This document shows, one piece after another, positions 12,516 through 13,697 of a DNA stretch of 29,363 nucleotides. The stretch is from a virus (Duplodnaviria; Heunggongvirae; Uroviricota; Caudoviricetes), in the IMG/VR virus record IMGVR_UViG_2713896897_000016, positions 1 to 29,363 of that record, one strand, 5' to 3'. Positions within the stretch are counted from its first letter, which is position 1. Each line of letters starts with the position of its first letter. Under the pieces are notes generated by a model. That model did not search any database. It saw only the letters and a list, made by a program, of their open reading frames with translations, and had not been told where the DNA came from. The position numbers and the translations under genes are program-made.

Positions 12516-12543
12516 AAAAAAAGCGCCCGCAGGCGCTTTTTTT
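12516..12543. terminator. bidirectional intrinsic terminator
   Basis: A7 - AGCGCC - cgca - GGCGCT - T7: perfect 6-bp GC-rich stem, 4-nt loop, flanking A and T runs; sits 15 nt past the stop of the 12558..13454 gene. Confidence 0.7.
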
Positions 12544-12557
12544 ATGATGCTAATTAA

Positions 12558-13454
12558 TTAGCTTAGCCCCTCTGCTTTACGCTGGGCTAAACGTGCTTTA
12601 AGTGAAGATGCGCTTAACACTGCACCTCGAGAAGAACCCGAGGTCTTTACTGCAACCCTTGGTTTCTGCTGAGTAGTGTTGCTCATTTTGGATCTTCCTT
12701 TTGCTGCTAAATTAGTTTGCGGACTATAACTCTTCACGTCTTGCTGGTCAAAGATTTTCGCTTCAATTTCCATCTCTTTATCATCCTCTTTTGACTCATC
12801 ATTCATCCATGCAAGCATTTCCTTCAGACAATCTACGCTTTCAAATCTCTCGATAATTTTAGTCTTTATCTTTTTATTGTAGTTGTCGATGTGGGCATCT
12901 GCAATCCAGTCTAACCGATCAATGACCTGAGCATTTTCCAACCAGATAATAAAGTTAAAATCACCACCAGAGCACGGATCCTTTTGGAAAGCAATGTTCA
13001 TACTTCGTGTAATCAGGTTTAGACCATGCTGCGAAAAGTCAAAAGCGCCACCAGTATTGATGATGCTAACGCTATCAATATACGAATTGATAGCATATGT
13101 TGAACCAGAGCCTGCACAGTAAAAAATGCTACCCAATGCTTTTAATCGCTCCGCACCTATGTAATAGGTAATCGCCCCACTCTTTCTATCCACCTCAATG
13201 AATTCACAGGTACTACGCTCTGCTTCAACATATTTTGCAATCCAATCGGCGAACTCCTCATCAACACCGATGCGGTCACCGATGTAGCCAGCCAAAATTG
13301 CTAAGATTGGGTCGATGTAGCCGGAAAAGAAAAGTATAGAGTCATTTAATACGTAATACTTCTTAAACGGTGCGGCTGCTGGCCTGTCTTCTTCATCCGT
13401 CCAAAGTTGGTCTACAGCAGCGAAAACAGAATCTTGTGCGATAATCGTAGTCAT
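12558..13454 (-). CDS. HslV / proteasome-beta-like N-terminal-nucleophile (Ntn) hydrolase homolog with ~120-aa C-terminal extension
   Basis: Starts MTTIIA (Thr directly after initiator Met, as HslV MTTIVSV); PFKKYYVLNDSILFFSGY resembles HslV VKKVRRLYNDKVIAGFAGG; FYCAGSGSTYA resembles HslV IAIGSGGPYA. Visibly AT-rich versus flanks (not computed). From memory of HslV, not a search. Confidence 0.6.
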   Translation of the reverse strand: MTTIIAQDSVFAAVDQLWTDEEDRPAAAPFKKYYVLNDSILFFSGYIDPILAILAGYIGDRIGVDEEFADWIAKYVEAERSTCEFIEVDRKSGAITYYIGAERLKALGSIFYCAGSGSTYAINSYIDSVSIINTGGAFDFSQHGLNLITRSMNIAFQKDPCSGGDFNFIIWLENAQVIDRLDWIADAHIDNYNKKIKTKIIERFESVDCLKEMLAWMNDESKEDDKEMEIEAKIFDQQDVKSYSPQTNLAAKGRSKMSNTTQQKPRVAVKTSGSSRGAVLSASSLKARLAQRKAEGLS

Positions 13455-13585
13455 TGATTCATTACATTTCTATTTTTTTCAAAATGATACAAAAAAATAA
13501 TGATTAAAGCGAATTTTTGAAGGTTAACTCAAACCCATTATGCATACAAAGTGTTGGGAGTCGTAGTAAAAAGACCTTCTAAATG

Positions 13586-13614
13586 AAAAAACCCCATCTG
13601 ATTGACGGGGTTTT
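13586..13614 (-). terminator. weak intrinsic terminator downstream of the Q-like gene (tR-prime-like)
   Basis: CCCCatc-tgatt-gacGGGG imperfect hairpin (one A-C mismatch) flanked by A6 on plus strand (U6 on minus-strand transcript). Confidence 0.4.
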
Positions 13615-13697
13615 AAATTGTTTTGCTCAATGTGTAACACTGCCGAGCATATACAAATAGTGTCAGTTTATTTTTTCGTTTAATTAACAAAAAGTGC

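Follow-up and report, generated by a model that had tools for sequence, protein, structure and literature searches.

The DNA considered here is a 29,363-nucleotide stretch of the virus record IMGVR_UViG_2713896897_000016 (the window, below, is this whole stretch), part of a lambdoid prophage with most of its genes on the minus strand. In the transcription order NinG, Q-like late antiterminator, 298-aa open reading frame (ORF), holin and CHAP endolysin, the third position is held by a gene whose product carries a threonine directly after the initiator methionine (MTTIIAQD). This minus-strand ORF, singled out in a first-pass annotation made from the sequence alone, is confirmed, and no in-frame start codon was found upstream of it. 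Its product combines a proteasome-beta-like N-terminal-nucleophile (Ntn) hydrolase core with a C-terminal extension, and the last 42 codons of the same frame appear to form a second, nested gene with signals of its own. The locus is best explained, with a probability of roughly one half, as a two-product cargo that would specify a T1-type threonine protease and, separately, the tail of that protease; this explanation does not require that the tail restrain the protease or that the module serve in conflict.

In the structure model, the 298-aa protein has the four-layer alpha-beta-beta-alpha Ntn fold. The core finishes near residue 180 and is followed by two acidic helices (186-204 and 207-237), a disordered linker (240-267) and a basic tail (268-298), where confidence is regained after the linker (predicted local distance difference test score, pLDDT, of about 90 in helix 282-294); the acidic-then-basic extension of about 120 residues noticed in the first pass is thus borne out. 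The model has 21 viral structural matches in BFVD. At the sequence level, residues 1-246 match phrog_1040, "peptidase HslV family", in PHROGs (E 1e-7), and searches of Pfam, NCBIfam and PADLOC with the 298-aa protein gave no match above threshold. A single-sequence search of PDB sequences found proteasome beta5 at E of about 0.01, across the GSG loop and the D-x-x-SGG motif, and a profile of 34 relatives reached several proteasome beta chains in PDB at E 3.5e-5; the significant alignments to solved chains span the half from GSG to D-x-x-SGG and exclude the N-terminal part with D15, K32 and G45.

Across the 34 relatives, which extend down to 18% identity, M1, T2, T3, D15, W18, K32, G45, G115, G117, D159 and G163 are invariant, positions 116 and 162 are always serine or threonine, and the start is Met-Thr-Thr in 34/34 sequences. 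G115-(S/T)116-G117 and D159-x-x-(S/T)162-G163 align with the GSG and D-x-x-SGG motifs of beta5 and beta1 chains, and D15, K32 and G45 agree in order and spacing with proteasome beta and HslV, the proteasome equivalents being Thr1, Asp17, Lys33, Gly47, Gly128-Ser129-Gly130 and Asp166/Ser169/Gly170. The threonine, the lysine pair (K32 is the second lysine of FKK) and the GSG loop that had pointed to a threonine peptidase are therefore present and conserved, and profile and structure comparison recover both the Ntn fold and the catalytic residues. In HslV, removal of the initiator methionine exposes threonine as the nucleophile. Here, the same removal would leave an N-terminal Thr nucleophile aided by Asp15, Lys32, Gly45, the Gly-Ser-Gly loop and Asp159/Ser162, and the protein is, judged from its sequence, very probably an active T1-type threonine protease.

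The narrower assignment to HslV, towards which the first-pass annotation had leaned, is not supported. Alignment of the family with E. coli HslV by hhalign covers residues 1-47 only, at a probability of 3%, which is too weak to support a specific HslV relationship; neither the protein nor any of the 34 relatives matches PF00227 of Pfam or the NCBIfam HslV model, and the protein resembles proteasome beta, Anbu and BPH at least as much as it does HslV. The reported lack of an HslU-like ATPase, by contrast with the HslV label, stands: no ATPase adjoins the gene in any of the eleven genomic contexts that were read, and no AAA+ ATPase is found among the other large ORFs scanned in the window or in the near-identical annotated Shiga toxin-producing E. 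coli (STEC) prophage. These observations bear on the possibility that the protein is a phage substitute for HslV, docking on host HslU or another AAA+ ATPase and redirecting ATP-dependent proteolysis in lytic growth, with the tail as a docking or tethering element. Gammaproteobacteria carry hslVU, and all hosts belong to this class; the superfamily and the Met-Thr-Thr start are common to HslV, and the gene has a late-operon position in the prophage. Such a role is nevertheless quite improbable in view of the lack of any special similarity to HslV, of an extreme C-terminus that is unconserved, unlike docking motifs, of solitary chromosomal and integrase-proximal copies, which speak against a purely lytic function, and, as weak evidence, of a two-copy model in which no ring interface was predicted. 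A low probability likewise attaches to a connectase-like monomeric enzyme, a sequence-specific processing enzyme or ligase for one phage or host protein, beside which the tail mini-gene would be an incidental remnant: proteasome beta, Anbu, HslV and BPH outscore connectase by far, and the nested signals are conserved too well for a remnant of this kind.

The nested signals occupy the 3' part of the gene (Table 1). A sigma-70-type promoter found by promoter scan is followed by the Shine-Dalgarno sequence AAAGGAAGA, 6 nt ahead of Met257, from which 42 codons reach the normal stop and the terminator. Met257 is invariant within the 298-aa subfamily. The same promoter element, first seen at the same codons in Klebsiella, Morganella and Proteus, is retained as TTGAC(N)-17-(T/C)AT(N)(N)T by all six orthologs of a codon alignment (39-82% amino-acid identity), and the sequence of the 17-nt spacer varies freely. 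In a blind test, a seventh ortholog, from Citrobacter, had the same promoter, Shine-Dalgarno sequence, methionine and terminator and again a main start devoid of a Shine-Dalgarno sequence; promoter, purine-rich Shine-Dalgarno sequence and ATG thus stand at the same codons in 7/7 orthologs. The Erwinia Shine-Dalgarno sequence GAGGAGGAA (GAG GAG GAA) is preserved despite T-E-E-E residues instead of K-G-R-S, and in the distant Aliivibrio branch (29% identity) AGGAGGG lies 7 nt ahead of the in-frame ATG that opens its tail. Pairing with the anti-Shine-Dalgarno sequence is essentially nil at the main ATG in close orthologs (+1.2 to -0.4 kcal/mol) and amounts to -5.6 to -11.8 kcal/mol at the internal ATG; about 8% of positions in these genes reach -6 kcal/mol.

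Synonymous change is suppressed over the same region. Synonymous-codon identity is 0.76-0.82 in windows across codons 216-257, against 0.3-0.55 elsewhere, and is back to about 0.4 directly past Met257; it is higher inside the region than outside in 15/15 ortholog pairs, with p<0.05 in 13, values that are not independent, the pairs having common ancestry. Corrected for amino-acid composition, codon identity over codons 216-256 is 0.78 observed and 0.51 expected (180 vs 116 of 230 comparisons). Single codons appear frozen: GAC for D236 (6/6), GGA for G253 in all five orthologs with Gly, the rare AGA for R254 in all four with Arg, and AGT for S244 in all four with Ser. These patterns suggest that the tail is probably expressed separately, and the locus would be a clean example of a functional gene within a gene that annotation pipelines overlook.

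The same region could instead yield a regulatory small RNA (sRNA) of about 200 nt derived from the 3' end rather than a peptide, the constraint on codons 216-256 then reflecting the promoter together with an RNA function. Enterobacterial sRNAs derived from 3' ends, MicL among them, are laid out in this way, with a promoter inside the coding region and a strong intrinsic terminator behind it, and sub-threshold Rfam matches to STnc50, STnc40 and STnc130 lie around the terminator. However, in the search of 11700-14400 nothing exceeded the Rfam gathering thresholds, the sRNA matches being driven by and centred on the terminator hairpin and scoring far below the cut-off (33.6 vs 55); the synonymous constraint ends at the ATG and does not continue through the supposed RNA body; the invariant ATG and the properly spaced Shine-Dalgarno sequence persist even where the amino acids change, as in Erwinia; and the tail ORF is open in all split and orphan alleles. 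An sRNA in place of a peptide is therefore improbable.

Split or orphan alleles of this kind have arisen in three independent lineages, and gene calls list the tail by itself in Morganella, Aliivibrio and Proteus-like genomes. In nine Proteus-like metagenomic contigs, a 1-nt deletion in the promoter spacer (now TTGACA-16-CATAAT) shifts the frame of the long ORF, giving a 246-aa tail-less protease and a 41-aa tail gene with its own Shine-Dalgarno sequence and ATG. In one of these alleles (L015) the core is, in addition, short of about 238 nt, the GSG and D-x-x-SGG motifs among them, but the tail cassette of promoter, Shine-Dalgarno sequence, tail ORF and terminator is intact. In A. fischeri, a 10-nt deletion just past a conserved TTGACA-18-TAAACT leaves a 170-aa core and a 45-aa tail gene. 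In M. morganii, at least ten contigs of independent sampling origin have lost 852 nt, comprising the upstream region and the codons from 1 to about 234. On its right side the deletion stops 2-3 nt short of the internal -35. Between feoC and a hydrolase gene nothing is left except the promoter (with a spacer of 16 nt), the Shine-Dalgarno sequence, 42 codons and the terminator, which are 96% identical. A profile of the tail by itself retrieves solely proteins of 41-57 aa, with no fusion to other domains, and the motif is confined to this family. Retention of the tail cassette by split and orphan alleles suggests that it is a self-sufficient unit able to outlive the protease, and that core and tail can be separate polypeptides. 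The shortening of the promoter spacer from 17 to 16 nt by a 1-nt deletion occurred independently in the Proteus-like split alleles (L014/L016, gene nt ~715) and in the Morganella orphan alleles (L017-L020); it may be due to chance or to retuning of the promoter after loss of the long ORF.

The gene behaves as a mobile single-gene cargo of temperate phages. In prophages of E. coli, Klebsiella, Lelliottia and Citrobacter, four in all, it is placed between Q and the lysis genes, and there the Q genes are of four types (DUF1133 in the window, an unassigned 202-aa protein in Klebsiella, PF06323 in Lelliottia, PF06530 in Citrobacter) and the holins of three; the first-pass annotation had taken this junction for a cargo site, and the survey of related prophages agrees. 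Elsewhere it occupies prophage edges: between icd and int in Erwinia, next to the integrase in a second Klebsiella type, about 2.5 kb from int, with three other genes intervening, near the end of a P2-like prophage in Aliivibrio, and, in V. cholerae, at the end of a filamentous prophage of the Rep_trans/Zot kind. The last position is that of ctxAB in CTXphi. Solitary copies are found in the chromosomes of Morganella, between feoC and a hydrolase gene, and of Proteus, between yjdM and thiL. The E. coli and Klebsiella copies are alike in their DNA only over the 5' untranslated region, the ORF and the terminator, the similarity starting 43 nt ahead of the ATG and ending 44 nt past the stop; every copy examined has its own intrinsic terminator after the stop, and the one in the window accompanies the gene in Klebsiella. 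The upstream DNA of the full-length gene differs between contexts. Presence or absence between conserved neighbours, deviant base composition and an own terminator are marks of a moron, and the gene shows these three. In E. coli, the position is that in which prophages carry the Shiga toxin genes.

This distribution also decides on the suggestion that the gene encodes an ordinary virion-assembly (prohead) protease with a nested scaffold. In-frame nested products are known from lambda C/Nu3, and a weak, sub-threshold NCBIfam match to a scaffolding protein exists (E 0.088). The gene is, however, not located in the head module, a module with DUF2213 and minor-head genes of its own, it is missing from nearly all related phages (present in 2/5,426 complete E. 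coli genomes and in none of INPHARED), and copies occur in a filamentous prophage and at phage-free chromosomal loci. The prohead reading is thus effectively refuted, and with the same counts the gene is no universal core gene of the phage group.

Table 1. The protease-tail gene, its nested signals and its neighbours, with positions in the window.
Feature	Position	Strand	Details
298-aa ORF, proteasome-beta-like N-terminal-threonine protease with C-terminal extension	12558..13454	minus	protein begins MTTIIAQD
Ntn-hydrolase core, codons 1-180	12915..13454	minus	T2, D15, K32, G45, G115-S116-G117, D159, S162, G163
Suppressed synonymous change, codons 216-256, over internal promoter and Shine-Dalgarno sequence	12687..12809	minus	
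Candidate internal sigma-70-type promoter TTGACC-17-TATAGT	12723..12751	minus	-35 12751-12746; -10 12728-12723; promoter scan
Internal Shine-Dalgarno sequence AAAGGAAGA	12693..12701	minus	anti-Shine-Dalgarno pairing
Nested in-frame 42-codon ORF from Met257, MSNTTQQKPRVAVKTSGSSRGAVLSASSLKARLAQRKAEGLS	12558..12686	minus	ATG 12686-12684
Strong bidirectional intrinsic terminator, closing both the full-length and the nested transcript	12516..12543	both	-24.4 kcal/mol, z -5.4
Weak candidate promoter of the full-length gene, TTGAGT-18-TTTAAT	13503..13532	minus	pattern search; low confidence; unconserved in other contexts
Terminator-like hairpin and T-run between Q and the ORF	13588..13614	minus	-15.8 kcal/mol, z -4.0
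Q-like late antiterminator, upstream neighbour	13698..14354	minus	phrog_753 E 3.8e-46; Pfam DUF1133
NinG	14351-14986	minus	
AT-rich non-coding spacer, cargo terminator to holin	12077..12515		GC 0.394; contains CRISPR protospacer 12293-12324
Holin, downstream neighbour	11756..12076	minus	Pfam Phage_holin_3_1; phrog_126
CHAP endolysin	11243-11728	minus	

Together with its non-coding flanks, the ORF stands out as an AT-rich island (GC content 0.30-0.42) among genes of 0.51-0.55, as had been judged by eye: the ORF is at 0.423, the Q-ORF intergenic region at 0.30 and the downstream spacer at 0.394, against 0.514 for Q, 0.547 for NinG and 0.536 for the holin. Of the two terminators that had been proposed to bracket the cargo, the strong bidirectional one downstream is upheld, but the upstream hairpin is better read as a candidate tR'-type terminator of the Q-controlled late leader than as part of the cargo, because it is located between Q and the ORF on the coding strand; it does not belong to the mobile unit. 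Comparable hairpins occur between unrelated Q genes and the ORF in Klebsiella (L007) and Citrobacter (L023), where promoter-like as well as terminator-like elements separate the two genes. PR' followed by tR' is the classic late-leader layout, with cargo inserted just downstream. A consensus scan of the minus strand from Q to the hairpin found no PR' late promoter, and inspection by eye was unconvincing. The solitary Proteus copies share a conserved, promoter-like TTCACT-17-TAGAAT upstream of the full-length gene.

The 440-bp spacer at 12077-12515 holds no convincing ORF and matches no deposited phage even at blastn sensitivity; the corresponding spacer of the Klebsiella copy is merely about 150 bp long. 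Positions 12293-12324 are matched 32/32 by the second spacer in the type I-E CRISPR array of strain TB06051, an E. coli from fresh water of the Galapagos (NZ_CM129850.1), and are flanked by an interference-proficient ATG protospacer-adjacent motif at 12290-12292; some E. coli strain has therefore been immunised against DNA bearing this island.

Several further features of the window deserve mention. Just upstream of NinG, in the nin region, the minus strand carries a homing-endonuclease-like gene with NUMOD4 and HNH_3 domains (15159-15743), in place of which the near-identical STEC384 prophage has other small genes. Exonuclease VIII (RecE-like) is present as two overlapping plus-strand ORFs, 24313-26205 and 26054-26629, which jointly cover one PHROG exonuclease profile (phrog_2489, positions 439-567 and 580-728) and so point to a frameshift or a programmed split; STEC384 has a single 2.3-kb gene. 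Two small minus-strand ORFs that follow immediately on the endolysin (10794-11042 and 11046-11246), with a lipoprotein signal and a lipobox (LTAC, LAGC), are candidates for spanins or lipoprotein cargo, their matches being limited to PHROGs of unknown function. Between the lysis genes and the terminase, 8596-10020 on the minus strand encodes a 474-aa fusion of a ParB N-terminal domain with an S-adenosylmethionine (SAM) methyltransferase. A second AT-rich stretch (GC 0.42-0.45) at 22000-24500 on the plus strand, adjoining a repressor-like gene (21899-22309), contains small ORFs matching phrog_4293 and phrog_3556 and one without a match; at the equivalent place the STEC384 relative has a "type I restriction endonuclease" gene, and the stretch may be another cargo slot.

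The protease family is small. A profile search of 1.84 billion representative proteins returned only 37 clusters, and all named members come from Gammaproteobacteria (Escherichia, Klebsiella, Lelliottia, Citrobacter, Morganella, Proteus, Pantoea, Erwinia, Aliivibrio, Vibrio). The complete E. coli genomes with the region, at 98% identity, are those of the pork isolates STEC384 and STEC379, whose annotation lists the product as "hypothetical protein" (WP_059215995.1), and the identical protein is present on 56 Escherichia contigs. Neither the region nor the protein found a match among INPHARED phages by megablast or tblastn, nor did the distant members P0033 and P0030; a scan of IMG/VR with the A1 alignment gave 36 pattern matches and no relative, and tblastn against plasmids gave none. 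The family profile does reach a PPH-type protein, P0055 (156 aa); this protein hits phrog_1040 at E 3.9e-32, and 255 deposited phage genomes encode homologs of it. In turn, phrog_1040 is matched by 25/34 family members.

The first-pass annotation knew of no described phage cargo of this kind, and this has to be corrected. The catalogue of Fuchs, Alva and Lupas (Bioinformatics 2021, PMC8665760) comprises 22 new proteasome homologs, among them the phage and prophage groups PPH, RPC and DPH, and phrog_1040 matches the protein. In the published literature, no functional study of phage or prophage proteasome homologs was found, and PPH, RPC and DPH are without assigned function. Compared by description rather than by accession, the family appears to fit RPC, possibly DPH: it is restricted to Proteobacteria, linked to PPH at the profile level and equipped with a C-terminal extension. 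The representatives WP_140207863 (RPC) and WP_074989469.1 (DPH) do not occur among the listed members of the clusters. PPH and RPC are described as lacking helix H2 (PMC8665760), a trait not obviously shared by the structure model, which has helices at 47-62 and 66-79. As far as the tools and the searchable literature show, what is new is the nested, independently maintained tail gene and the distribution of the cargo over diverse temperate elements.

Taken together, these features are compatible with the following scheme. The first product would be the 298-aa stand-alone proteasome-family threonine protease, its core followed by the helical acidic arm, the flexible linker and the conserved basic tail; it would be made mainly late, probably through Q-antiterminated read-through of the leader terminator. 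The second would be the 42-aa tail alone, made from the internal promoter, Shine-Dalgarno sequence and Met257 up to the same terminator, and could be expressed independently of the long product. Since the internal start has a good Shine-Dalgarno sequence and the main start none, the free tail should outnumber the protease. The tail may act as partner or regulator of the core, most likely as restraint or antidote and less likely as obligatory cofactor. It may bind the core, and the confident prediction of the tail in both AlphaFold runs is compatible with this; that it restrains the protease is put forward tentatively. Rather than in virion assembly, the module might function in conflict between phage and host or between phages, by exclusion, abortive infection or addiction, and a role in defence, exclusion or addiction is conceivable but doubtful.

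Several points weigh against this picture. The split and orphan alleles could be recent decay products in which the tail ORF is called merely through its good ribosome-binding site. Only 2 promoter-like matches were found in this AT-rich DNA against 5.1 expected, so that a single match is not significant, and the Klebsiella 264-aa and V. cholerae branches lack the internal ATG, so that the nested start is confined to a part of the family. A tandem construct of two copies modelled with AlphaFold, a weak probe of oligomerisation, gave no confident interface (predicted template modelling score, pTM, 0.46; pLDDT 66), a result that is no valid negative for a double hexameric ring. Phage carriage rests on prophage context, because INPHARED and IMG/VR hold no relative by sequence. 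PADLOC-DB 2.0 returned 0 families at E up to 1, with no link from the family to any defence system tested. Proteolytic activity, separate expression of the tail, its interaction with the core and the biological role are all inferred from sequence.

As to function, a self-regulated conflict module is preferred because the gene sits where temperate phages carry conversion and defence genes, because it is kept intact in phage-free chromosomes, and because some alleles have lost the large product and kept the small one, as is seen with antidotes. It is intriguing to consider, unlikely as it is, that one frame might hold a complete conflict module, a poorly translated protease as effector and an excess of tail peptide that restrains it or is consumed by it; shut-off of host expression, for instance by an infecting phage, would then release the protease. 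If this were true, the Morganella orphan tails would be immunity or anti-addiction remnants, and the locus would represent the first toxin-antidote or abortive-infection system of the proteasome family and a new way to nest an antidote inside a toxin gene. Even the narrower case of a tail that controls the protease would show regulation of an unfoldase-less proteasome relative, and a protease-based module could be added to the known phage-host conflict systems. Anbu, BPH, PPH, RPC and DPH have been known for years without assigned function, and the locus makes one of them accessible to experiment, as a compact and transferable gene of E. coli and related bacteria whose catalytic residue can be mutated and whose nested signals can be changed synonymously, and for which core-only, tail-only and fused versions already exist naturally.

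Among known proteasome relatives, RPC comes closest in being a small, uncharacterised, Proteobacteria-restricted family without propeptide, linked to PPH at the profile level only and provided with a C-terminal extension that has no structural match, but neither prophage cargo positions nor a nested tail gene are reported for RPC (PMC8665760). PPH shares the superfamily, the MTT start and carriage by phages; it differs in its size of about 140 aa, in the absence of an extension and in its occurrence in virulent phages such as Jerseyvirus (255 records), and has no BLAST-level similarity to the 298-aa protein. Compared with HslV (ClpQ), the protein is without an hslU partner and without a match to the HslV model, and has the proteasome-type D-x-x-SGG motif, the 120-aa extension and a prophage cargo context. 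Anbu and BPH, the stand-alone proteasome homologs of bacteria, are in contrast encoded by housekeeping or operon genes of the chromosome; ring or helical assemblies have been solved for them, and they have no basic tail, nested gene or prophage carriage.

Outside the superfamily, the prophage-borne protease or toxin logic recalls the Lit protease of prophage e14, which acts in abortive infection, and type II toxin-antitoxin systems; the latter are also resembled in the orphan "antidote" alleles and in the predicted combination of a strongly translated small with a weakly translated large product. There is, however, no homology to these systems and no PADLOC match, and both products here come from one reading frame. 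Formal parallels are Tn5 Tnp/Inh, f1 gII/gX and lambda C/Nu3, in which an internal start, served by a separate promoter in Tn5, yields a shorter product of the same frame that modulates the long one or accompanies it. The locus shares with them the in-frame shorter second product, and departs from them in that the short product would be the 42-aa C-terminal tail of a protease.

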